IMG/VR virus record: IMGVR_UViG_3300021400_000012
Coordinates: 63,575 to 127,574 of that record
Source: a virus
Taxonomy: Duplodnaviria; Caudoviricetes
Length of the DNA: 64,000 bases
Reading direction: 5' to 3' (one strand)
Part shown: positions 1,383 to 64,000 of the stretch, in pieces
How positions within the stretch are numbered: position 1 is the stretch's first letter
How the letters are laid out: every line of letters begins with the position of its first letter
Notes under the pieces: generated by a model
The model's input: only the letters and a program-made list of their open reading frames with translations
Databases searched by the model: none
Told to the model about the DNA's origin: nothing
Translations under genes and position numbers: made by a program

Positions 1383-3305
1383 ATGAGTTTATAGGTTTGG
1401 CTTCCATTAAATGGAACTATAAAAAATCAAGGTCTAAGTGATACTGTTACCAGTATATCCGGCGCCGTATCAGCTATTGGAAAAATGGGTACTTGTTATT
1501 CATTTGATGGGCAAGATGATTATATTTCTATTAATAATTCTGATTTATATTCAACCCTTTCTGGCGGCGCTAATAATTTTTCTATGACTTTTTGGATTTA
1601 TCATGCTGACTCCAGTAGAGCTATAATTTTTGGTGATTATTAGTTATCTGGAACTATATCCTTTAATGTAGAATTAACAACTAGTCATACTGTTAGATTT
1701 TATTGGGGAGGTTCTCCTGATAAAACTTTTTCAAATAGTGGTGTGGGACTCAATACATGGACACACATTGCTTTAACTTATAATGGTAGTAAAATTTTAA
1801 TTTATAAAAATGGTGAGTTATTATCTGATTCATATTCTAGTACTTTAAGCAAGAAAAATAAAACGTCTGGTTTATATCGCTTAGGACGAGATAATAGAAC
1901 TGGAACTACTGCTTTTAAAGGACGATTAAATGATTTTCGTATTTACAATCATTGTTTGTCTGCAAAAGAAATAAAAGAAATTTCAAATGGACTTATACTT
2001 CATTTGCCTTTTAAAGACAATGGTATTGTTCCTTTTAACAAAAATTTATTACCAGATTCTAATGTAAATTCTCTTAGTAAATATTTAGGTACACAAGCCC
2101 GGTATTATGAAAATGCAAGCCAAACATCCTATACTAATACGTGGGTTACTATTGAAGATCCGCCTGTACCAGGAATTTTAAATGGTATACAACAAACAGT
2201 AACAGCTTCTGAGGGCTTTCATAGTGTCACATGGTATTCAGGTGGTACCGTTTCAGTATCAGCCGTACCATATACTATGAGTGCTTATATAAAACGTTTA
2301 TCAGGTACAGATTTAGTTGTACAATTTGAGTATGGTAAAAACCCTTATGTATGGAAAAGAATAACGTTGGAAAACGATGATGAATGGCATCAATATAGCT
2401 GGACTTTTATTCCAGACACAGCCTCGGGGAAAGCTGCTGCGAGTGGTACAACACGTATATATTGTGGTGGTTTATATTCAGTGGGAGAAGTTCTAATTTG
2501 TGGCTGGAAGTTAGAAAGAGGGAGTGTTGCAACTCCATGGAATGAGTGTGGCAATACTTTTTATGATTGTTCAGGTTTTCATCATAATGGTATGGGCTTA
2601 GGTGAATTAACAAAAGTAAATTATGATTTTAGATATGGAACTGCTCTTAATTTAAATTCTACAGCCCAACATGTAATGATTCCAGATTTTTCAACTGAAG
2701 GATTTAGTGATTCTTACACTATTTCGTGGTGGGGAAATCGAAATACAAATGAATCAATGTTTTGGGGCTTTGGAGATGGAAATAGATTAAATGGTCTGTA
2801 TAAAGGATATTTATGGAATACTAACGATGGACTAGAAAACATTTTATATTCTCCAGGTACTACCACTCAAGTTACACCTTCAGCAACTAATACTTGGAAT
2901 CATTGGGTTATGACTGGAGATGGAACCACTTGTAAAGTATATAAAGATGGCGAATTATGGGGCGTTGCAAAAACATATAAGCCTATTAATGGATCTTTAC
3001 TTTTTATTAATGGATATAATAATTTGTCTAGTTATACGGCATCAAGTTTATAGATAAGTGACTTTCGTATTTATGCAACCGCATTATCTGCAGAAGAAAT
3101 AAAAGAGCTTTATAATACTTCAGCTGCAATTGATAACAAAGGTAATGGTTACGCTAGAGAAGAAATTGAAGATACGGATATATTATCTATAAATAGAAAA
3201 GGTCAATTTATAAATAATAAAGTGGTTGAAAGTGATAATAATACTACTGCTTATTTGGGCAAGATAGATAAATCATTAAATGTAAATACATTTTATGAGT
3301 ATTAA
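1383..3305 (+). CDS. LamG/ConA-like lectin domain virion protein
   Basis: SD AAGGAGG; starts MSL(TAG)VWLPLNG; [10 protein letters not shown]...LNDFRIY and second ISDFRIY LamG signatures; ends TAA. Confidence 0.8.
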
Positions 3306-3318
3306 TGAAGGAGTTGAA

Positions 3319-3879
3319 ATGGCATAGTTAAAAGATTTAATTGTAAATGGCGCAACTTAGTTACTAGGTGACGTCATTACTAATAATTTGAAAGTTATTA
3401 CAGTGGTCGCGCCAGACTCCTCAGGAAGTAGTGTTTATGGTAAAGGTATAGATGGCTAGGTTTTAAAAACAAACGGTAATTCTGTTTATTGGGGAGAAGG
3501 GTCGCTAGGAGCTTTTATAGCAGAATATGGCACGACCACGAATCAAGAAATAGAAACAGCAATTTCTAGTGGAAAAACAGTTTTTTGTCATTTATTAGAT
3601 AATGGAATAAATTTTTATTTACCATTAGCAAGGAAAAATAGTGCTACTGATCATCGTTTTGGTGGAATATATGCTCAAGATGACATATATCTAATTGGAA
3701 GTTCGTGTGTAAATAATTCTTGGACTTTTTAGAATAGTACGCAAGCTTAGGCTGACTGGAATGCGACAAGTGGCGCTAGTGAAATTTTACATAAACCAAC
3801 ATAGGTTAGCTCATTTACAAATGATGCTGGTTATTTAACGCTAGCTACATTACCAATTTATGATGGAACAGTAATTTAA
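3319..3879 (+). CDS. Virion structural protein (absent from standard ORF track)
   Basis: SD AAGGAG; MA(TAG)LKDLIVNGAT(TAG)LLG; (TAG)ADWNATSG motif; open to TAA only with TAG readthrough. Confidence 0.75.
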
Positions 3880-47381: not shown

Positions 47382-48596
47382 ATGTTAAATAAGAAGGGCG
47401 AAAGAGAATTAGCTTATCTTGTAAAAATTGATGATATTCAGCCAATTGCCGGATCTGATAATTGTGAGTCGGCGGTAGTTGGTGCATGGCATATTATGAC
47501 CAGAAAAGGTACATTCCATACTGGTGATATTGCTGTTTATTTTGAGATTGATTCTCTTCTCGATACCACCAAACCAGAGTTTGCTTTTATGGAGAAATAC
47601 AAAGGCAAGGTAAAGACTCAGCGTTATACTTTCGGTGGTAAAGGAAACTTTATTAGTCAGGGTCTTCTGATGCACCCGAATGATTTTGGTTGGGTTTCTG
47701 TTATTGATGAAAATGAAATTCAGTATGGTGTTATGACCAAAACGAGTGATCTGGTTAGAACTCTCGATAACGAATCACGGTTTCTTACAGAACTTCTTGG
47801 TGTTAAATATTATGACCCAGAAGACGAAAAGAGAAAAAGGGATCCGAAGGCGGCACAGCCTCAACTTCCCAAGTTTTTTTATGCGGGCATTGGCCGCAAA
47901 ATGATGAAAATTAAGTGGCTTAAAAATATTATTATTAAGCTATTTGGAAAGAAAAAGCGTAAAAATATTTGGCCTTATTGGGTTGTTAAGACTGATGAGG
48001 AACGGGTGCAGAATATTCCTTGGATTATTAAGGAAGAAGATGAATGGATCCAAACGGAAAAGATTGATGGATCTTCTTCTACTTTCACAATGATTCGTAA
48101 AGGCCACAGGTTTGATTATTATGTGTGCTCGCGCAATGTAGTTTTTGAGACTGGAAAAGAACAGTGCTATTATGATAAAAACATCTATCTTGAAATGTCT
48201 GAAAAATATCAGATTGAGACGTTTCTCAAGCAGTATCTTCAGCTAAATAAGGATATTGAATGGGTCACAATTCAGGGTGAAATTTATGGCCCAAGTGTGC
48301 AGAAGAGAGATTATTCTCTTAAAGAAAGAGAACTTGCGGTTTTTAATTTTATTGATTCTAAGAATGGTAGATGGAATTCTGCTAAGGCAGCAAAGTATCT
48401 ACATCAATTTCAGTTTGTGCCTGTGCTGAGTGAACACTTCAAAATGCCAGAAACCGTGGATGAGCTTCTTGAAATGGCGAATGGAAATTCTTTTGTAGAT
48501 GGGAAGCCTCGTGAAGGATTTGTATTTCGCAGTCTCGATGGAAGGAAGAGCTTTAAGGTAGTTAGTAACGAGTATCTTCTAAAGTATCATTCATAA
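47382..48596 (+). CDS. RNA ligase (Rnl2/DRB0094-like)
   Basis: N-terminal OB-like LAYLVKIDDIQPI; TEKIDGSS, IQGEIYG, REGFV, FKVVSNEYL. Confidence 0.85.
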   Translation: MLNKKGERELAYLVKIDDIQPIAGSDNCESAVVGAWHIMTRKGTFHTGDIAVYFEIDSLLDTTKPEFAFMEKYKGKVKTQRYTFGGKGNFISQGLLMHPNDFGWVSVIDENEIQYGVMTKTSDLVRTLDNESRFLTELLGVKYYDPEDEKRKRDPKAAQPQLPKFFYAGIGRKMMKIKWLKNIIIKLFGKKKRKNIWPYWVVKTDEERVQNIPWIIKEEDEWIQTEKIDGSSSTFTMIRKGHRFDYYVCSRNVVFETGKEQCYYDKNIYLEMSEKYQIETFLKQYLQLNKDIEWVTIQGEIYGPSVQKRDYSLKERELAVFNFIDSKNGRWNSAKAAKYLHQFQFVPVLSEHFKMPETVDELLEMANGNSFVDGKPREGFVFRSLDGRKSFKVVSNEYLLKYHS

Positions 48597-55360: not shown

Positions 55361-55880
55361 CTTCTACTCAATGCACAAAGAAGGAGCTGAAAAGCTCCTT
55401 CTTTTTTAATGCGCGCTGAAAATTTGAAATTTGCAGAAAATTGTGATATAAAATATATTTATATTTATATTTCCCCTTTTATTATAATATAAATTAAAAA
55501 AATTTTCAACTTTTTTCCAGCTTAAAAATAAAAAATTTTTAAAATTTGACAGCCGGGCGCAATCGCAGCTCAGTAAAAATTTGATTTTTGCAGCTCCCAG
55601 CTGCAGCTGCTATGAAAATTTGATTTCGCAGCTGCCTAGAAATTTGACATCTGGAAAAATTTGACGCCCGGGTAATTAAGGTCTGTACACTGAAGACTCT
55701 GCGGCCGCGGGAGTTGAAGACAAAAAATTTTAAAAATGAGACTTGACAAAAAAAGAAAATTATGTTATAATGAAAGGTTATGGATGCGCGCCCGGGTCGA
55801 TTGCCCGGGCAAGTTAGCACATGCTAACTCGACATAAAAAAAGAAAGGGGTTTGCACCCCTTTCAACTGCAGGAGAGTTT

Positions 55881-56252
55881 TCACTCTCCCTTTTCCGCCT
55901 TAGCCCTTGCCTTGGCTTCGGCTCTCGCCTTGCGGTCAGCCTCGTCCTTGGCAATCTTGGCGGCTTTCTTGGCGGCGGCTTCCTTCGCCTTTTCTTCCTT
56001 TTCCGCTACTTTCATAGCGTAGGCTTCGGCTTCGCCATAGCCGTCATAGGGTTCGCCGCCACGCTCGCCAGTCGGCACCTTGACAGTAACGACGATGAAT
56101 TCGTCGTTGCCTTCGGTATCCACGCAGGGGAAGGCGATTTCATTAGAGCCAGTCCGCAGGACCTCCTCGCCATTTACGCGAAAGAGTTCGATAATGCGCT
56201 CAAGATAAGCGGTGCGGAGAGAGTCACGAAGAGATTTACGAGAAGTAGCCAT
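55881..56252 (-). CDS. Early hypothetical protein (paralog of 59396-59767)
   Basis: TGSNEIAFPCVDTEGNDEF...KVPTG...YDGY; K/A-rich tail. Confidence 0.75.
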   Translation of the reverse strand: MATSRKSLRDSLRTAYLERIIELFRVNGEEVLRTGSNEIAFPCVDTEGNDEFIVVTVKVPTGERGGEPYDGYGEAEAYAMKVAEKEEKAKEAAAKKAAKIAKDEADRKARAEAKARAKAEKGE

Positions 56253-56514
56253 TCTATATACCTTCCTTTCTTTTGGTAGCTTTATTATAGCACATTTTAA
56301 GAGGATTGTCAAGGGGTTTCTCAAATTTTATTGTACAATTATTATTTTGAGTGTTTGGGAAGCCCTTGTATACCCACCTTTGAAACTCTTCCGCAGAAGG
56401 TTTCGGTCTATCTCCCCTCGACACTATATATAATACCACAAAAGCCGAGAAAAGTCAAGTGCTTTTTAAAAATTTTTTAAGTTAGCATAGACTAACTTTG
56501 CCCGGGCGGTGGGG

Positions 56515-57153
56515 TCACTCATAGAGTGCCCCATCAACTACACCGCGCCGTCTACACTCGATTAAAATTTCTTTTTCAATCAGCACATCATCAAGACCTT
56601 TGTGAACTTCTTCAAAATCGTTTTGACCGCTGATAAACCGATAGAGGACTTCTGCAGTCATTTTGTACTGACCTCTCGGCGTTTTATAATTGTTTGTGTC
56701 GCAAAAATCGCGGTATTCGGAATCGTTGCCGAAAGCTTTTCTTGCCATTTTTAACGTGTCGCAGATTTTCGAGCCATACGGCAGAAAGTACCGATATTTT
56801 GAACCGCTGATGAAACGCTGCGTAAGCTTGAGGCTTAAGTCATCAAATCTTGCGTTGTGAGCGTAAATTTCTGTGACCCCATAGGCTTCACAATCAGCTT
56901 TAAGAGAGCGATAAATCGTGCTCATGCGCGCGAGCTTGCGGTCGCCGTTTTTGATTTCGTCCCAGTACTGCGGAATCTTCTCAGCAAAATACGCCTGCTC
57001 CATCAGCTCTTTGTCAAGAAAAATTTCAGCAACAGCGTAGCTTTCCGTTTTTAAGACTTCGCCATCTTCATCAATAACCGCCCACCCAATATCATATGCA
57101 AGCGGCTCTTCAAGACCGTTGGTCGCCTCAGTGTCAAGTACCAAAAAATTCAT
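56515..57153 (-). CDS. DEDDh 3'-5' exonuclease
   Basis: VLDTE, AHNARFD, HKGLDD. Confidence 0.85.
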   Translation of the reverse strand: MNFLVLDTEATNGLEEPLAYDIGWAVIDEDGEVLKTESYAVAEIFLDKELMEQAYFAEKIPQYWDEIKNGDRKLARMSTIYRSLKADCEAYGVTEIYAHNARFDDLSLKLTQRFISGSKYRYFLPYGSKICDTLKMARKAFGNDSEYRDFCDTNNYKTPRGQYKMTAEVLYRFISGQNDFEEVHKGLDDVLIEKEILIECRRRGVVDGALYE

Positions 57154-57264
57154 TTTTAGGACGCTCCCTTCATTTGATAGATTAAGTATATCACAAGACA
57201 CGAAAAAAGTCAAGAAAAATTTTTTATCATTTTTTCCGATTTGCGCCCGGGCAGAAGAAGAGGA

Positions 57265-57438
57265 TTACTCCTCTTCGACGCCTTCACATTTAAAAGCGGG
57301 GTACTGTAAAATGTTCTTCCATCTTATAGATGTATCATCTTGAATGTCGCCTGCCCATTCATAAAAAATATCCTGCGCTTCATCACGATTTTTTGCTTCA
57401 ACAACAATCCAACCTTCAAAATCTACTACGTATTTCAT
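57265..57438 (-). CDS. Small early protein
   Basis: SD AGAAAGGA; VEAKNRDEA. Confidence 0.55.
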   Translation of the reverse strand: MKYVVDFEGWIVVEAKNRDEAQDIFYEWAGDIQDDTSIRWKNILQYPAFKCEGVEEE

Positions 57439-57735
57439 TTTTGGTTTCCTTTCTGCGCTCGATTTCTGCGACAATCTTTTTATACATATATTCTAAATAC
57501 CAATCGTCCCAAAGTTGGATATCATCATAAGTTTCCATTGTGTTTCGCCTTTCTTTATTCGTGCATTAAATAAAACTTCTGTATTCTTCCGTCATAATGA
57601 TATATAATAATGACTTCAAAAGTTTCACTTCCGTGGATTTCTTCCGTGATTTCATAATCTTTAATAAATGTCATATTTGTTTTTCCCTTCTTTTGATAAA
57701 CTTATTATAACATATCTTGTTTTATTTGTCAAGTC

Positions 57736-57930
57736 TTAATTTGCATATTCTTCATCAATTACTACAAAATGAATTTCATATTCTTCGTGGTTAGAATTTT
57801 TTTTACCACAATCATCAATCCAATAATCTTGGTCTATAACATTTTGTGCTTTTTCAGAAGTAGAAAAAACTCTCATAAAAGTTTGTAAAGTGTCTCCCCA
57901 AAGGTTATCATATCCAAGTAAAACGTACAT
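57736..57930 (-). CDS. Small early protein
   Basis: Own TTGACA..TATAAT promoter and SD. Confidence 0.6.
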   Translation of the reverse strand: MYVLLGYDNLWGDTLQTFMRVFSTSEKAQNVIDQDYWIDDCGKKNSNHEEYEIHFVVIDEEYAN

Positions 57931-58035
57931 TTTTGTTTTTTCCTTTCTTTTGATATATTTATTATACATCTTTGGAGTGTATTTGTCAACAGTTTCTTTT
58001 TGTTATTTTTTCCGATGCGCCCGGGCAGAAGAGGA

Positions 58036-58230
58036 TTACTTCTCTTCTACCTCATCAATTCCTTCTTCATCGCAAAAAGCAACAAAAATTTCTCTTGAAG
58101 TGCTATTTACGTATTCAGTTAATTCTTTACTAGACATAGCTTGAAAAATTTCACTCTGACAAACAGTACGACAAAGAGTGTAAGCAACAATGTCCATCAT
58201 TTTCATAGCAGTTTCTAATTTAATGTTCAT
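58036..58230 (-). CDS. Small early protein
   Basis: Own promoter and SD. Confidence 0.6.
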   Translation of the reverse strand: MNIKLETAMKMMDIVAYTLCRTVCQSEIFQAMSSKELTEYVNSTSREIFVAFCDEEGIDEVEEK

Positions 58231-58328
58231 TTTCAGTATTTCCTTTCTTTTGATGATTTAATTATAGCACACTCTTTTTTATTTGTCAAGTAGTTTTTTT
58301 AAAAAAATGTCCGGGCGCCAACATTTGG

Positions 58329-58571
58329 TTACATTTCTTCCCAAGTGTCAGTATACCACGCCCACGAATATGGATTACCTTCAACATCGGCAGTTTCGCT
58401 TAATTCAATTATATGCGCTGGACGACCACTTTCAAAGCGACCTTTTCCCCAAATAGTCGTAATATAATCTTCCTCCCAAGTTGTGTAACCCATTTCGGAA
58501 GCAAACCTTTTAATAATTTCAATTCTCTTCTCTGCGAGTTTCTTTCGTTCTTCTTTTTTTGTTTTTTTCAT
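58329..58571 (-). CDS. Small early protein
   Basis: Own promoter and SD. Confidence 0.6.
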   Translation of the reverse strand: MKKTKKEERKKLAEKRIEIIKRFASEMGYTTWEEDYITTIWGKGRFESGRPAHIIELSETADVEGNPYSWAWYTDTWEEM

Positions 58572-58854
58572 TTTCGGAAATCGCCTTTCTTTTGATGGAT
58601 CTATTATACCATATCTTTTTTTATTTGTCAAGTAGTTTTTCAAAAAATGCCCGGGCAGTGGATGTCTATTTATATTTTAATTCTACATTTTTTCTTCGGT
58701 CGTATGAAAATGTTGAAAATTATTTTGAATACAATCGAACGCAAAGAAACAGTAAGGAACGTTATCAAAATTATTATGTAACAAACTACATTTATTACAA
58801 ATTGAACAATTTTTAATAGTATTTTTTAAATATTTATCAAGAATAATTTCTTTT

Positions 58855-59049
58855 TTAGTCATTTTTTATCTCCTTTCTTTTTGTATCAATTAAATATTGC
58901 GGCCAAATCCTATAATCGTCGGCATCGAATTGTGCCGCCACATACCGTTTCGCGGCTTCATGTTCAGTGAATACTGCAATATCCTCAAGATCGTTAGAAT
59001 CGGAGTTGACTAAATAAACTACATAAATCGCTTTGCTAAGGTCAGTCAT
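58855..59049 (-). CDS. Small early protein
   Basis: Own promoter and SD. Confidence 0.6.
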   Translation of the reverse strand: MTDLSKAIYVVYLVNSDSNDLEDIAVFTEHEAAKRYVAAQFDADDYRIWPQYLIDTKRKEIKND

Positions 59050-59395
59050 TTTTTTGTTTCCCCTTCTTTTTTGTAAATTTATTATATCATAAGACTTAAA
59101 AATTGTCAAGAGGTTTTTAAAAATTTTTCAGTTTAAAAAATTTCAAATGCTTCGTGTAATCCGCACTCATACTCATCGATCCACTTGTTAGACTGCGGAA
59201 AAGTATCAAGTATTTTTTGTGTCTTTTCTCGATCTAAACCTACACATACAACATCGGCATAATCGTTTAATACCACACCTACATAAATTGTCATTATATC
59301 AAGTCCTTTCTATTTTTTACACTATTATTTTATCAAATTTTTTCTAATTTGTCAAGAGGTTTTTAAAATTTTTTGACCGGGCAAAAAGAAGAGGG

Positions 59396-59767
59396 TCACC
59401 CCTCTTCTTTTGTCTTACGCTCGGCTTTTGCTTTCGCGCGTGCTTCGCGCACCGCTTTGTCGTGTTCGATTTTCTCCGCTTTCTTCTTTGCGGATTCTTT
59501 TGCTTTTTCCATTTTTTCCTTGCACTTCATTTCGTACTCTTCGGCGAGTGCATAACCATCGTATGCGTCACCATCGCGCGAACCAGTGGGAACTTTGAAC
59601 GTAATCACAAGAAATTCATCGTTTCCCTCTTCATCAAGACAAGGGATACAGATTTCATTCGAACCAGTTACAAGAACCTCTTCGTCCTGTGAATGAAGAT
59701 AGTCACTAATAAGGTTCAGATAACGATAACGGAGTTTTTCGTTCAGAGATTTTTTGGAAGTTGCCAT
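59396..59767 (-). CDS. Early hypothetical protein (paralog of 55881-56252)
   Basis: TGSNEICIPCLDEEGNDEF...KVPTGSR...YDGY. Confidence 0.75.
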   Translation of the reverse strand: MATSKKSLNEKLRYRYLNLISDYLHSQDEEVLVTGSNEICIPCLDEEGNDEFLVITFKVPTGSRDGDAYDGYALAEEYEMKCKEKMEKAKESAKKKAEKIEHDKAVREARAKAKAERKTKEEG

Positions 59768-59974
59768 ATTGTTTGCTCCTTTCTTTTTACAAGTAGATTA
59801 TATCATAGATATTGGGATTTGTCAAGTCTTTTTTCAAAACTTTTTTATTTTTTCTAAATATATTATATAAAAAAATTATAAAAATTTCAAATTTTATTTT
59901 GTCCGCGCCCGGGCGAGTTAGCCAGTGCTAACTCGCGCGATTAAAAAGAGGGGAGCCTTGCTCCCCTCGTTTGG

Positions 59975-60319
59975 TTACTGCGTGATAACCGTGTAACCCT
60001 TGCACTTGCCCTTGCCCTTGACCTTTACATCGTGGACTGCGACCTTGCCGCTTGCCGCGAGCTGCTGAAGCAGAGCAGACGCTTTCATCGTGGTTAAGTT
60101 GAGCGTGGCACCGACCTCAGCGGCGGTCTTCGGCTCAGCGGTCAGAATACCTACGATTTCAGCCTTAATCGGCTCATTCGCAACCGCTGTCTTGGACGGA
60201 GTAGCGGCGCGCTTCGCGTTGCGCCTATCGAGCGCGGCGACCATTTCCTTCGCCTGATTCGTCATTTCTTCGGAAAGGTTAGCTTCGATAACAGTGTTAA
60301 GGAATTCACGAGTAGTCAT
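59975..60319 (-). CDS. Winged-helix DNA-binding protein
   Basis: REFLNTVI...EPKTAAEVG...KASALL.QL..SGKV...VKVKGKG; preceded by three tandem promoters. Confidence 0.7.
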   Translation of the reverse strand: MTTREFLNTVIEANLSEEMTNQAKEMVAALDRRNAKRAATPSKTAVANEPIKAEIVGILTAEPKTAAEVGATLNLTTMKASALLQQLAASGKVAVHDVKVKGKGKCKGYTVITQ

Positions 60320-60863
60320 TTAGTACCTCTTTCTCGCTATTAGGTTGCGACCCTTAAGTTTTTTTGCTTGAGAGTTTATCTCTCTTTTGTGCCTTTATTA
60401 TAGCACACTTTTTTGAGTTTGTCAAGAGTTTTTTGAAACTTTTTTATTTTTTTAAGTGCTTCTTTTTTCTCGCACGCTCTTGACTTTTTGTACCTTTATT
60501 ATAGCACATTCTCTTGAAGTTGTCAAGGGGTTTGGGTGTGCTATTATCGCTTCTTACACCACGTGGGGTATTAGCCCACCGATAGTCTTGCGAGGATTCT
60601 ATCTTCTTCTCTCTCCCCTTGACAATACATAGTATATCACAAGACCCCGAAAATGTCAAGTACTTTTTTAAAAAATTTAAAAAAGTTTAGTTAGGCGCGG
60701 CTAACCGCGCCCGGGCACGAAAAAGCGCCCTACTCGTCGAGTTGGCGCCCTTTATGTTTTTTATATTTGCTTTCGATGCATTCGTGTTTGGTTTTTTCAT
60801 AAATTGGGGAAAGTCCAACAAAGGTGGGACCGCGGTCGGTTTTGTTGTTTGATTTTTTCTTGC

Positions 60864-61304
60864 TCATTTCAACCCCCTTAAGATTTCGAGAATGTCATCT
60901 ACATTATGCGCGATGCCTTGCCAATCATTACGATTTTTTTCTTCATCATCGAAGAGAATGTCATTTTCGGAATGTCTGAACAAGTCTTTTAAGGTTCCGT
61001 ATGCTACGATGTTAATTTTCTCAAATTTTACGCTTTTGAGATGAGTGCGGAGCCATTTAATTTTGGCGGCGGCGACTGCTTCATCATATTCGGTGGTCGA
61101 GTTCTTAGCCGTCCAAGAAATTATTTCTACAGCATAGCCGTTCTGCGTTAAGCGGTTCAGCCGACGAGCCAGTACCTGCAGGTTGAGGAGCGGGCGCGCG
61201 TTTTCATACGGATAAGTATCGAAAGCGCGGAGATAATCAAGCCAGTTTTCTACTCCGTAGAAGTCTGCAATTGTGCCGTCCATATCGAAGAAGATTGTAG
61301 TCAT
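60864..61304 (-). CDS. HAD-family 5'(3')-deoxyribonucleotidase-like protein
   Basis: FFDMDGTIADF, K..WL..H, ILFDD...N..W. Confidence 0.8.
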   Translation of the reverse strand: MTTIFFDMDGTIADFYGVENWLDYLRAFDTYPYENARPLLNLQVLARRLNRLTQNGYAVEIISWTAKNSTTEYDEAVAAAKIKWLRTHLKSVKFEKINIVAYGTLKDLFRHSENDILFDDEEKNRNDWQGIAHNVDDILEILRGLK

Positions 61305-61534
61305 ATTGGAATGTCCTTTCTTTTTCTATATATACTATATCACATTAAGATAAATTTGTCAAGTGTTTTTTCAAAAAAATTTTGCCCGGGCGCTTAGTGT
61401 TTTTTATGGGAAAGAATTAGACCTGCGACAATACCAACTAACAATATGTCACAAATTAAGCCTAAAGTTTGCGGTCCGCCTGCGGCATTTGTCGAAAGAT
61501 GGTTCATTATTAAGTAAAACATTTTTTGCTCCTC

Positions 61535-61780
61535 TCAATAAAACTGTGCAAGAAGATATACATTTAATGTAATGGTTGCAAGGTGCATTAGCATTTCGTT
61601 GATATGTCGATTTTTATTTGAAAGGTCTTTGATAAAGCCAAACGCCGCGATAGCAAGCCCCAAATAACAAGCGACCATACCAAAACAGATAATGCCCAAC
61701 ACATTTGCCAGTGTACAAAGCGCGCGAATATCGTTCCATTCAAAATGATAAGTATCAGATAGATTAAAAAAGCGTTTCAT
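61535..61780 (-). CDS. Small membrane protein
   Basis: Hydrophobic helices, own promoter. Confidence 0.6.
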   Translation of the reverse strand: MKRFFNLSDTYHFEWNDIRALCTLANVLGIICFGMVACYLGLAIAAFGFIKDLSNKNRHINEMLMHLATITLNVYLLAQFY

Positions 61781-61866
61781 ATTTGTTACCTCTTTCTTTT
61801 CTATATATACTATATCACAATTTTATAATTTTGTCAAGCAAAATATGAAAAATTTTTGGCCCGGGC

Positions 61867-62100
61867 GCGACCCCACGACAGTACTATCGTGGAGTCGTTT
61901 TGAATGGCTCTGCTCCGTCCATCCGAGGCGGTCGGCCAACTTGGCGGACTGTGCCATCCTCGGCATCTTTGGTCTACTGATTTATAACGCGGGTGCCCGT
62001 CTAACGTGGTCGACTTGTGACCTTTGACTTTGTGTCTACTGCGGGTCTGCGGAGAGTGACCAAGTCACCCCGCGGGTTTTAAGTTTTCCTTCTCTTTTGT
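61867..62100 (-). ncRNA. Candidate structured ncRNA cassette
   Basis: Three tandem promoters upstream, no start codon after the purine-rich leader, GC-rich stems, terminal CGACTCCACGA/TCGTGGGGTCG hairpin. Confidence 0.5.
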
Positions 62101-62488
62101 GGTTTAAGTATAGCACACTTTCTGAAGTTTGTCAAGGGGCAATTTCATTTTTTTGAAATTCTTTAATGAGTCTTTCAAGTTCTTTGCTTTCTGTTTTCCC
62201 TTGTCGACTTTGGTCTCTGTCTGCTGAACTTGAGTGTCTCTCCCCTTGACAACTATAGTATATCATACCCCGAAGGGTTTGTCAAGGGGTTTTGAAAACT
62301 TTTTTCGGATTATTTTACACCGACCATTAACCCTCAAGGAGTGGCTCTCTTTCGCTCGCCGTTCTCATTTCCCCTTGACAATATATAGTATATCACAAAC
62401 GCATTTAAATGTCAAGTGTTTTTAAAAATTTTTTTCGAGGGCGCCCGGGCATCGCCGTGCCTTCTAAAGTTATTTGACGGGACGCGGG

Positions 62489-62950
62489 TTATTTGTTCCG
62501 CATCCTCGCCAAAGTTTTTTCGTTGATGAAAGTTGCCTTTTCGTATTTGATTTGATAGGCAACGCCGTCGACGGTCAAGTCGCCGTCTTCTGTAAAGGGA
62601 ACATTGTCTTTTGTCCAAGTCTGCCCGTACCATTCGGTGACCAGTTTTTCGAAAATCTCGCCTGCGTTGTACTTGCTATTTGCGACGCAAGTGTCGAAAT
62701 ATTCTTTTGAGCAAAGGGCAAAAGTCGGAAGCACTCGCATATAGGCTTTCTGTGCCTTGTTGGGTTTGTAGCGAAGTGCAAAGCCTGCGCCACGACTTGC
62801 GCTATCCAGTGTGCAGATATAGGGGAGATCATTCGCCGTACCGATTGCGCAATAGATAGTGCCGTTATCGGCATAACCGAACATATATTCGTGCGTGTAG
62901 GAAAGTGCGTTGTAGTTGTCGATTAAGGACTTGAAAATCGTGGTGTTCAT
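62489..62950 (-). CDS. Hypothetical protein, PD-(D/E)xK-like
   Basis: NAGEIFEKL...GDL...YQIK. Confidence 0.6.
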   Translation of the reverse strand: MNTTIFKSLIDNYNALSYTHEYMFGYADNGTIYCAIGTANDLPYICTLDSASRGAGFALRYKPNKAQKAYMRVLPTFALCSKEYFDTCVANSKYNAGEIFEKLVTEWYGQTWTKDNVPFTEDGDLTVDGVAYQIKYEKATFINEKTLARMRNK

Positions 62951-63145
62951 TGCGGTGTTCCTTTCTTTTTTCTAACGATAGTATACCATGGAAAGTTAAG
63001 TTTGTCAATAGTAAAATTGAAAAAATAAAAAAAATTTTTTTTCGAAAAAGTACTTGACAAGTTCCCTTCGGTATGGTAAAATGTTAGTGGTGGAAAGGGT
63101 CGCGCCAATATTGCCCGGGCACGATGGCAAGTTTAAAGGGTGGAT

Positions 63146-63313
63146 TTACATCCACCCTTTCCACGATTCAATTGCGTTTAAGGCAACTTTCTTGGCGCTA
63201 AAACTTGCCAATGTGCGCTCTTCGGTCTCTTTGGTGACCGCGATTGCGTACCATTTTTTGCCGACCTTCTGTAAAAAGAAGTTGTGGGTTTCGTTCGAAG
63301 TGATGTAAGTCAT
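63146..63313 (-). CDS. Small early protein (55 aa)
   Basis: Own promoter and SD; MTYITSNETHNFF. Confidence 0.55.
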   Translation of the reverse strand: MTYITSNETHNFFLQKVGKKWYAIAVTKETEERTLASFSAKKVALNAIESWKGWM

Positions 63314-63379
63314 TTTGTGTCTCCCTTTCTTTTGATAAGTCTATTATAGCAGACTTTGCCCGGTTTGTCAATAGGTTTT

Positions 63380-63790
63380 TTAAACTTTTTTGTTTTTTAA
63401 TTCTGCAAGCCACTCTTCAAGGGAAGCAATTTGTTTTTCAAGTTCTGCAATCTCTTTTTTGTATTGCTGAATGGCGTGACGTGTATTATATTCTTCTCTT
63501 GTCATGCCATGTTTTTCATAGAACGTTTTATTTTTTAGTTCGACAATTTCTTTTTCGATTGCGGTTTCGTCAATCAGATTTTTAAGGATTGCTTCCCGTT
63601 CGGCTTTTTCTTTTTCTTTGTCTTCGGGAGTTGCATATTCGAAATCATATCCGCGGTCATGCATCGCGCAATCGGTATAAACTACTTTGGTGGCATATTT
63701 GCCTTCCATTTTATAATAAGTATTGAAAATTTCTTTGTTGATTGCTCTTGCTTCGTTCAGTTCGGCGGTGAGTTCCTTAACGGTCTTCAT
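63380..63790 (-). CDS. Coiled-coil early protein
   Basis: Own promoter and SD AAAGAAAGGA. Confidence 0.7.
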   Translation of the reverse strand: MKTVKELTAELNEARAINKEIFNTYYKMEGKYATKVVYTDCAMHDRGYDFEYATPEDKEKEKAEREAILKNLIDETAIEKEIVELKNKTFYEKHGMTREEYNTRHAIQQYKKEIAELEKQIASLEEWLAELKNKKV

Positions 63791-64000
63791 GATTTATATC
63801 TTCCTTTCTTTTGATGACTAAAGTATAGCATAGATTTCCGGATTTGTCAATAGGTTTTTAAAAATTTTTTGCCCGGGCAGCGACGGAAAATCAAAACTCC
63901 CGTGGAGTTGTCCACGGGAGGGAGGGGAGGTCGCGTTCTGCCGATTTTTCATTCCCCTTGTCGGCTCTGCCCACTGATTTGTTACACGGGATTGGTCTTA

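Follow-up and report, generated by a model that had tools for sequence, protein, structure and literature searches.

An exact palindromic octamer as a lineage-specific boundary mark in a PeSL-like early-gene cassette array of a rumen phage

Promoter-early stem-loop (PeSL) elements are regulatory cassettes of the T4-type phages phi1 and RB49 (Arbiol et al., 2010; PMC2839356). Their stem-loops are G/C tracts, which are located either upstream of the -35 box or between the two promoter boxes (PMC2839356). An array of this kind was found in the DNA analyzed here, a stretch of 64,000 nucleotides (nt), referred to as the window, which covers positions 63,575 to 127,574 of the virus record IMGVR_UViG_3300021400_000012 (Duplodnaviria; Caudoviricetes). 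The record is complete with 127,574 bp, the window forms its second half, and the virus is a rumen phage. Towards the end of the window the early genes are arranged in small units, and the gaps between these units carry the exact 8-base palindrome GCCCGGGC (the octamer), which is a lineage-specific boundary mark inside a PeSL-like early-gene cassette array. The array and its kinship to the PeSL cassettes are known in kind; new is a candidate reader of the boundary octamer.

The analogy to PeSL cassettes, which had been drawn in a first-pass annotation of this DNA, is apt. Both arrays consist of small, mostly unknown early genes with stem-loops and strong host-type promoters preceded by an A/T tract, and in both the G/C elements lie either upstream of the -35 box or between the promoter boxes. 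Both are also concentrated in the most plastic region of the genome, and close relatives differ by indels and replacements located at the elements. However, the conserved element in the rumen phage is an exact, loop-less 8-bp palindrome apart from a variable hairpin and not the stem-loop itself. The word is invariant across very divergent phages without flanking homology and is carried by only some lineages, it co-occurs with a gene for a putative dedicated reader, and the phages are rumen phages instead of T4-type phages.

A further related system is the host-takeover module of the Firmicute phage SPO1, for which dense small early genes and strong sigma-A promoters are described (PMC6873191). 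This module (gp37-gp60, in the 13-kb terminal redundancy) resembles the rumen phage locus as a dense block of small early genes with sigma-A promoters, but it contains no exact GCCCGGGC and only one one-mismatch copy, which is at chance level. With integrons the locus shares the linear row of exchangeable units parted by a recurring site. In contrast to the attC site, an imperfect inverted repeat of 57-141 bp, only 8 bp are conserved here, and whereas integron cassettes are promoterless, every unit here has its own promoter. In addition, neither an IntI-type tyrosine recombinase nor a serine recombinase was found in the complete genome (no match to PF00589; controls detected 14/14).

The octamer and its early-gene arc

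In the window, GCCCGGGC occurs 12 times between positions 55803 and 63871 and is absent from positions 1-55802, which agrees with the first-pass annotation; the expectation from dinucleotide-preserving shuffles is 0.18 copies per window with a maximum of 1. By exact-word search, and without strand assignment as for the other palindromic elements below, sites 1 to 12 were located at 55803..55810, 56500..56507, 57245..57252, 58019..58026, 58649..58656, 59907..59914, 60709..60716, 61384..61391, 61859..61866, 62443..62450, 63113..63120, and 63871..63878. Four near-variants listed before are all genuine one-mismatch copies, namely GCCCGGGT at 55666..55673 and at 55790..55797 (13 bp from site 1), GTCCGGGC at 58309..58316, and GACCGGGC at 59375..59382. 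The whole genome contains 15 copies of GCCCGGGC, three of them beyond the record junction (genome positions 933, 1993, and 2319). All 15, like all 19 CCCGGG of the genome, are confined to one early-gene arc of ~10.8 kb, so that the word is not equally common elsewhere. The record ends in a 107-bp exact repeat, which looks like an assembly overlap due to its shortness. A megablast search with the arc as query found no counterpart among 50,697 GenBank phages, and nothing relevant was found in the literature on GCCCGGGC in connection with phage.

Neighbouring sites in the window are 475-802 bp apart, with a single interval of 1258 bp. Across relatives the median is 764 bp (interquartile range 552-984; 227 intervals in 31 arcs). 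The description of the sites as quasi-periodic was thus right about most distances, but the apparent period is the cassette length and there is no true periodicity.

The entire arc is encoded on the minus strand and runs from genome position ~3290 through the record junction to ~119,340, about 11.5 kb; its window part comprises positions 55800..64000. It contains ~30 promoters near the consensus TTGACA-17-TATAAT/TATACT, nearly all with an extended -10 TG, and A/T tracts are present. After most promoters a common AAAGAAAGGA leader is followed by one to three small TAG-free genes, while some promoters point into stretches without an open reading frame (ORF). At most sites the minus-strand order is hairpin, GCCCGGGC, A/T tract, promoter, AAAGAAAGGA leader and one to three small genes, as had been proposed on first reading. 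Only 15 of the ~30 promoters are preceded by an octamer at up to 130 bp (54/104 over five phages). The spacing is loose: the distance from the site to the -35 box is mostly 12-67 bp and occasionally more than 100 bp, and the octamer at genome position 933 falls within a promoter spacer.

The sites are coupled to an upstream hairpin. The fold energy of the 45 nt ahead of a site is -12.2 kcal/mol on average, compared with -8.1 ahead of promoters without a site and -6.3 in windows drawn at random from the arc (p<=1e-9). The gap between hairpin and site is 0-4 nt in 78% of the cases vs. 61% in a windowing control, which is a modest excess. Many of these hairpins have no U-tract, their sequences are unrelated, and some sites have no upstream hairpin. 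The octamer itself is loop-less, unable to fold on itself, and separate from the variable hairpins. Over 65 sites in five phages the invariant part consists of the 8 bases only, with no further similarity in the flanks apart from position -1, which is never A, position +8, which is never T, and a mild bias for T before and G after the word. Since the octamer is invariant without flanking homology, it is the word, rather than some larger repeat around it, that is under selection.

Relatives were retrieved with a cassette protein of 212 amino acids (aa), whose gene is located at 56515..57153 on the minus strand. It shows DEDDh-exonuclease-like motifs (D-T-E, N-x-x-F-D, H-x4-D), gives no call in Pfam and is conserved throughout the phage family. 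Among the 76 viral loci obtained, 25 carry 4-19 octamers each, including distant relatives with 38-49% marker identity and 33-48% GC; overall, at least 25 related phage contigs carry GCCCGGGC. The octamer is identical among phages whose marker proteins share only 38-50% identity. In five complete genomes (109-128 kb) a single arc holds all octamers, and no more than 0-1 CCCGGG per genome are situated outside it, so that conservation in relatives extends to both the word and its confinement. The octamer is absent from many relatives in which 25-36 consensus promoters were counted. In the marker-protein tree the arrays occupy a single large clade, within which they were secondarily lost in places, and at least two lineages outside it.

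The retention of CCCGGG had been called odd for a phage, but this was not borne out. The control word GGGCCC of the same composition is found 0-2 times per genome and is as rare as CCCGGG outside the arc, so there is no special avoidance of CCCGGG, and restriction avoidance outside the arc was ruled out. Taken together, the octamer is supported as a dedicated, specifically recognised putative site, and the patterns of conservation and placement make it quite probable that GCCCGGGC is read by a specific protein. From the earlier proposal of a dedicated protein-binding or recombination site, the dedicated word stands, as its 8 bases are invariant and arc-confined, whereas the part concerning recombination holds only partially.

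Other lineages use other words. The same cassette layout was observed in L009 (3600-11400) and L049, a distant relative with 28% GC, where GCGTCTAAA inverted repeats precede every promoter. These repeats consist of CGTCTAAA and TTTAGACG, including the arrangement TTTAGACG-CTAAC-CGTCTAAA, in place of GCCCGGGC, and are a lineage-specific alternative boundary element. In L080, CCACCTAA/TACCACCT occurs ~15 times upstream of early promoters and GCCCGGGC is absent.

A restriction-enzyme-like protein family as candidate reader

In an association screen, all ORFs of 77 arcs were clustered and each of the 1348 clusters was tested against array presence. The top cluster, named Family 1, is present at 15 of 25 array loci and at none of the 48 array-free loci, and L047 and L076, two outlying lineages with arrays, have it as well. 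Two copies are encoded on the minus strand of the arc outside the window, one of 162 aa (genome 766..278) and one of 134 aa (genome 3235..2831). The window itself contains a member of a deeper branch of the superfamily, 1b, with 153 aa (62489..62950, minus strand; hidden Markov model (HMM) E=1e-7). Family 1 proteins are small (about 130-190 aa) and phage-only, with 407 clusters among 1.84 billion representatives, and form a previously undescribed protein family. Among 17 members with ~20-30% identity, the residues E38, D62, and K71 do not vary and position 69 is either S or Q, and in the 1b branch N32, G34, E38, D62, Q69, and K71 are invariant (37 members).

The AlphaFold (AF2) model of Family 1 has a pLDDT (predicted local distance difference test) value of 89.6. 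The nearest solved structures are HhaI (Z 5.6, root-mean-square deviation 4.0, 117 residues aligned), ThaI (5.2), NhoI (5.1), and I-Ssp6803I (4.8), followed by HinP1I and PvuII (both 4.2), MspI (3.9), and MutH. Restriction enzymes and their relatives make up nearly all of the top 14 neighbours, and the weak matches include tRNA-splicing endonucleases. Foldseek places the model next to HincII, Sau3AI, and MutH with E about 0.2, and in a protein-language-model neighbour cluster (Atlas) 20% of the members have a PvuII domain. These scores weakly support a predicted fold class only, namely restriction-endonuclease-like, PD-(D/E)xK. With the small type II restriction enzymes HhaI, HinP1I, MspI, PvuII, and ThaI, which are its nearest solved structures, the candidate shares the E..D..[S/Q]xK triad. 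HinP1I carries the Q-x-K variant. In contrast to these enzymes, the candidate has no detectable sequence similarity to them and no partner methyltransferase, and the recognition sites of the predicted enzyme would be enriched in the phage's own genome instead of being avoided. The octamer is the recognition sequence of SrfI and contains SmaI and MspI sites.

Owing to the diversity of Family 1, loci were scanned with sub-alignments. Searches that started from the family itself yielded 15 or more new contigs, and all of those with usable downstream sequence carry octamers, 1-12 per contig vs. 0.004-0.2 expected; in the few without an octamer the contig stops right after the gene. Family 1 genes together with GCCCGGGC were also seen on L108 and L109, contigs of metagenome-assembled genomes (MAGs) assigned to Erysipelotrichaceae and Acutalibacteraceae, respectively, i.e., rumen/gut Firmicutes. 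This binning is a weak hint on the host range of the phage group.

In 13 of 15 phages the arc opens with a gene of Family 1. Where array phages lack a close copy (L015-18, L043), a 1b member fills the first slot. This is also seen in the complete genome G001, where the first arc gene encodes a 1b member of 152 aa (detected by HMM) and the first octamer lies 15 bp past its stop codon. In array-free phages the 1b gene has an internal position.

Furthermore, CCGGG or CCCGG cores are found within the -35/-10 spacer of 21 of 367 promoters in array phages, but of only 7 of 866 in array-free phages, and control pentamers show no such bias. The in-spacer cores are concentrated at the family's own promoters, with 9/21 compared with 13/372 at others (odds ratio 21, p=2e-7). 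In array-free phages the corresponding values are 2/5 and 5/861. Such a distribution would be the pattern expected of autoregulation by a CCGGG-recognising protein.

A different pair of readers, described as two winged-helix-turn-helix paralogues, had been put forward in the first-pass annotation. The only paralogue pair in the window consists of two 123-aa proteins (55881-56252 and 59396-59767). Their confident models show a helix, three strands and a long charged coiled-coil-like helix and give no winged-helix match, so that they are not supported as winged-helix octamer readers. They are also less array-specific, being present at 17/25 array loci and 7/48 array-free loci.

Exchange between units and the weighing of explanations

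The arcs are strongly mosaic between relatives. When all alignments of at least 250 bp are considered, homology ends at sites in 5.6% and 4.0% of the cases vs. 3.5% at random, which is no enrichment, so that crossing-over precisely within the octamer was rejected as the main route. The start of a homology block mostly falls in the UP/-35 region and its end 20-100 bp ahead of a site; in the 100 bp before a site no block begins, and in the 100 bp after it blocks hardly ever end. Among alignments with at least 85% identity, 8 of 40 distinct ends lie on a site edge (1.9% expected), but these represent only ~3 independent events.

Strain variants from public assemblies also provide sharp junctions. 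A contig of X5 joins 58311 directly to 57246 and thus represents a deletion from the near-site GTCCGGGC to site 3. Homology restarts exactly at 61384 (site 8) in two runs, X20 and X6, and one X20 piece ends at 57253, at site 3. Further junctions at 58852, 59128, 56305, and 56450 lie away from sites. One set of joints, most of which had short sides situated in repeated promoters, was left out of this count. No flipped cassettes were found in 31 arcs, so that free cutting and religation at the palindrome gets no support. The idea of a recombination site is partly supported in so far as gains and losses can have junctions exactly on sites, while most homology ends elsewhere. Cassettes are indeed exchanged at the mark, though only in part, and the sites often act as seams without being the only ones, which is also known from the T4-type PeSL cassettes. 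Such behaviour could be a by-product of a conserved word beside repeated promoters.

The observed positions and conservation of the octamer, its co-occurrence with Family 1, the triad, the fold class, the in-spacer cores, and some of the junctions suggest how the arc may work. It would be a row of self-contained early units, each with a host sigma-A-type promoter, one to three small genes and a 3' hairpin, and GCCCGGGC would serve as a recognition site in the gap between the hairpin of one unit and the A/T tract and promoter of the next. Because the reader gene is usually the first in the arc, its protein would be made first. The candidate protein would dock onto the palindrome. A promoter with the octamer or a CCGGG half-site in its -35/-10 spacer would thereby be shut, which at the family's own promoters would result in autoregulation, and at the sites between units the bound protein would mark or insulate the unit boundaries. 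Since the triad is strictly conserved, the protein would probably also nick or cut at the sites, and the gaps would thereby become favoured seams at which cassettes are gained, lost, or exchanged when relatives co-infect a cell.

As a whole, this reading of a PeSL-like array, in which the octamer is a protein recognition site and a restriction-enzyme-like first-gene family is the candidate reader, is proposed tentatively and falls somewhat short of being probable. Its most specific part, that the reader belongs to the Family 1/1b nuclease-like family, is possible but less likely than not. A more far-reaching version is unlikely. It would see the arc as a "restriction-site cloning array", with a methylase-less restriction-type endonuclease as the first early gene, GCCCGGGC kept by the phage itself between its units, autoregulation, and cutting that insulates the units and drives cassette exchange.

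Several points weigh against Family 1 as the reader. The family has no match in Pfam, PHROG or PDB sequences, and its fold scores are modest (all Z<8, in addition to the Foldseek value). A partner methyltransferase is absent from the genome (no match to PF00145 and PF01555), so that with 15 sites of its own the phage would need another safeguard against a self-cutting enzyme. A phylogeny-aware paired test, with a marker tree built on an arc gene, comprised n=7 contrasts (~3 in the same direction, 0.5 opposite, 3.5 without difference) and was not significant (median p 0.375), and the co-occurrence of Family 1 and arrays may therefore partly reflect shared ancestry. Some array phages have no close Family 1 copy, and the 1b branch is found in array-free phages too. 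The in-spacer cores need not be operators, since PeSL stem-loops also lie within promoter spacers, and some of the cores may have been inherited along with gene and promoter.

An alternative is another DNA-binding protein, of the phage or of its host, for which the octamer would be an operator or insulator site and which would coordinate early promoters or block read-through between units, with the nuclease-like family merely sharing the ancestry of the arrays. The invariant word between varying flanks, its placement between hairpin and UP element, the nuclease link that is not significant in the phylogeny-aware test, the arrays without a close Family 1 copy, and the patchy spread over the phage family, which could track host factors, all agree with such a protein, and we consider it possible, though on the doubtful side. 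A phased activator is difficult to reconcile with the very variable distance to the -35 box (12-67 bp, sometimes more than 100 bp, one site in a spacer), and half of the equally strong promoters have no site. Moreover, no gene family in the association screen tracks the arrays better than Family 1, and the 123-aa paralogues are not winged-helix proteins. It is rather improbable that no dedicated reader exists, so that the palindrome would be a passive G/C part as in the polyG/polyC stems of T4-type PeSLs, kept uniform by frequent recombination and by horizontal exchange among cassettes and acting by microhomology only. The position of G/C tracts upstream of the -35 box or within the promoter in PeSL stem-loops, the deletion between site and near-site, the junctions at sites, and the highly mosaic cassette content are in line with this. 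However, a loop-less 8-bp palindrome forms no hairpin alone and the adjoining hairpins are unrelated in sequence; the word is not borne on a larger repeat, as flanking homology is missing, and it is identical where marker proteins share only 38-50% identity. Most homology ends away from the sites, so that exchange is not what maintains the word.

Two further explanations have very little probability. At the RNA level, hairpin and GCCCGGGC could form a processing or stability signal for a ribonuclease in read-through transcripts, for which the close succession of hairpin and site (78% within 0-4 nt, though 61% in controls) and the mildly asymmetric flanks with T before and G after could be cited, as could the tRNA-splicing endonucleases among the weak structural matches and the ribonucleases among PD-(D/E)xK enzymes. 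The word is a perfect DNA palindrome, though, copies and half-sites occur in promoter spacers, where they are untranscribed from that promoter, and some sites have no upstream hairpin. Equally remote is a role in host defence or DNA-end biology, i.e., restriction decoys, the processing of terminal repeats, or a Chi-like safeguard for the end injected first. The identity with the SrfI sequence and the analogy to SPO1, by which the arc may be a terminal repeat, would speak for it. The strict intergenic placement at unit boundaries is left unexplained by such a role, CCCGGG is not specially avoided elsewhere as GGGCCC is just as rare, and the SPO1 terminal repeat has no octamers.

Further elements and cargo of the arc

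A second palindrome, GTTAG(C)-N4-(G)CTAAC, is found seven times in the genome, and six of the seven copies abut an octamer on either side. Within the window these are GTTAGC-N4-GCTAAC at 55813..55828 (site 1), GTTAGC-N4-ACTAAC at 56481..56496 (site 2), GTTAGC-N4-GCTAAC at 59917..59932 (site 6), and GTTAGG-N4-GCTAAC at 60690..60705 (site 7); the remaining octamer-abutting copies are at genome positions 1972 and 2334. This palindrome could be the operator of a different protein or a conserved hairpin. Akin words (CGGTTAGC, CAGTTAGC) recur in L019, L020, and L040.

Two triplets of consensus promoters on the minus strand (62415, 62285, 62135 and 60659, 60526, 60425) are directed into stretches without ribosome binding site or ORF, and several of the transcripts from ORF-less promoters begin with a common GTCAAGGGGA leader. 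These promoter runs may give rise to small non-coding RNAs; an Rfam search of the arc gave no match. A motif like CACTAAAGTGTTAAAG, an ACTTTA..TAAAGT inverted repeat, was observed between closely spaced double octamers in L008 (9199-9244), L047 (11978-12048), and L076 (2508-2577), as well as at arc starts upstream of Family 1 genes in L006, L022, L034, L040, and L076. Two to three repeats like TTTCGTAAGGAAAATG followed by CCAGGGCCG are shared by relatives directly ahead of the first arc gene, where the arc diverges from the late genes. They are located at genome ~3300-3480 outside the window, at ~5080-5200 in L006, in L019, L022, and L040, and at 72780-72900 in G001, and could serve as late or middle promoter, as origin, or as signal for packaging.

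The genes of the arc mostly encode small proteins without known family, which is typical early or host-takeover cargo. One of them (60864-61304, minus strand) encodes a 5'-deoxyribonucleotidase of 146 aa (NT5C/HAD; Pfam 1.5e-7, PHROG 2e-13). An early enzyme of this type suggests a manipulation of the nucleotide pool, as in phages with modified DNA, and if the phage DNA is modified, the sites could be shielded from a self-encoded nuclease. A few kb from the distal end of the arc, an RNA-ligase-family protein of 404 aa is encoded on the plus strand (47382-48596, translated with code 15), with matches to PF09414 (1.5e-19) and to the PHA02142 OB domain.

PeSL-type arrays are regarded as a means by which large lytic phages reshuffle their host-takeover genes, and to our knowledge no dedicated mark or enzyme has been tied to them. 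In this family of abundant rumen and gut phages, an exact 8-bp mark of the unit boundaries is common, and the candidate reader is concrete, a protein of 130-190 aa with the site of a commercial restriction enzyme, SrfI, as its predicted target. If the proposed reading is true, a restriction-enzyme fold would have been turned inward, regulating or recombining the phage's own genome. This would provide a handle on the evolution of early-gene repertoires and possibly a new 8-bp-specific DNA-binding or DNA-cutting protein.

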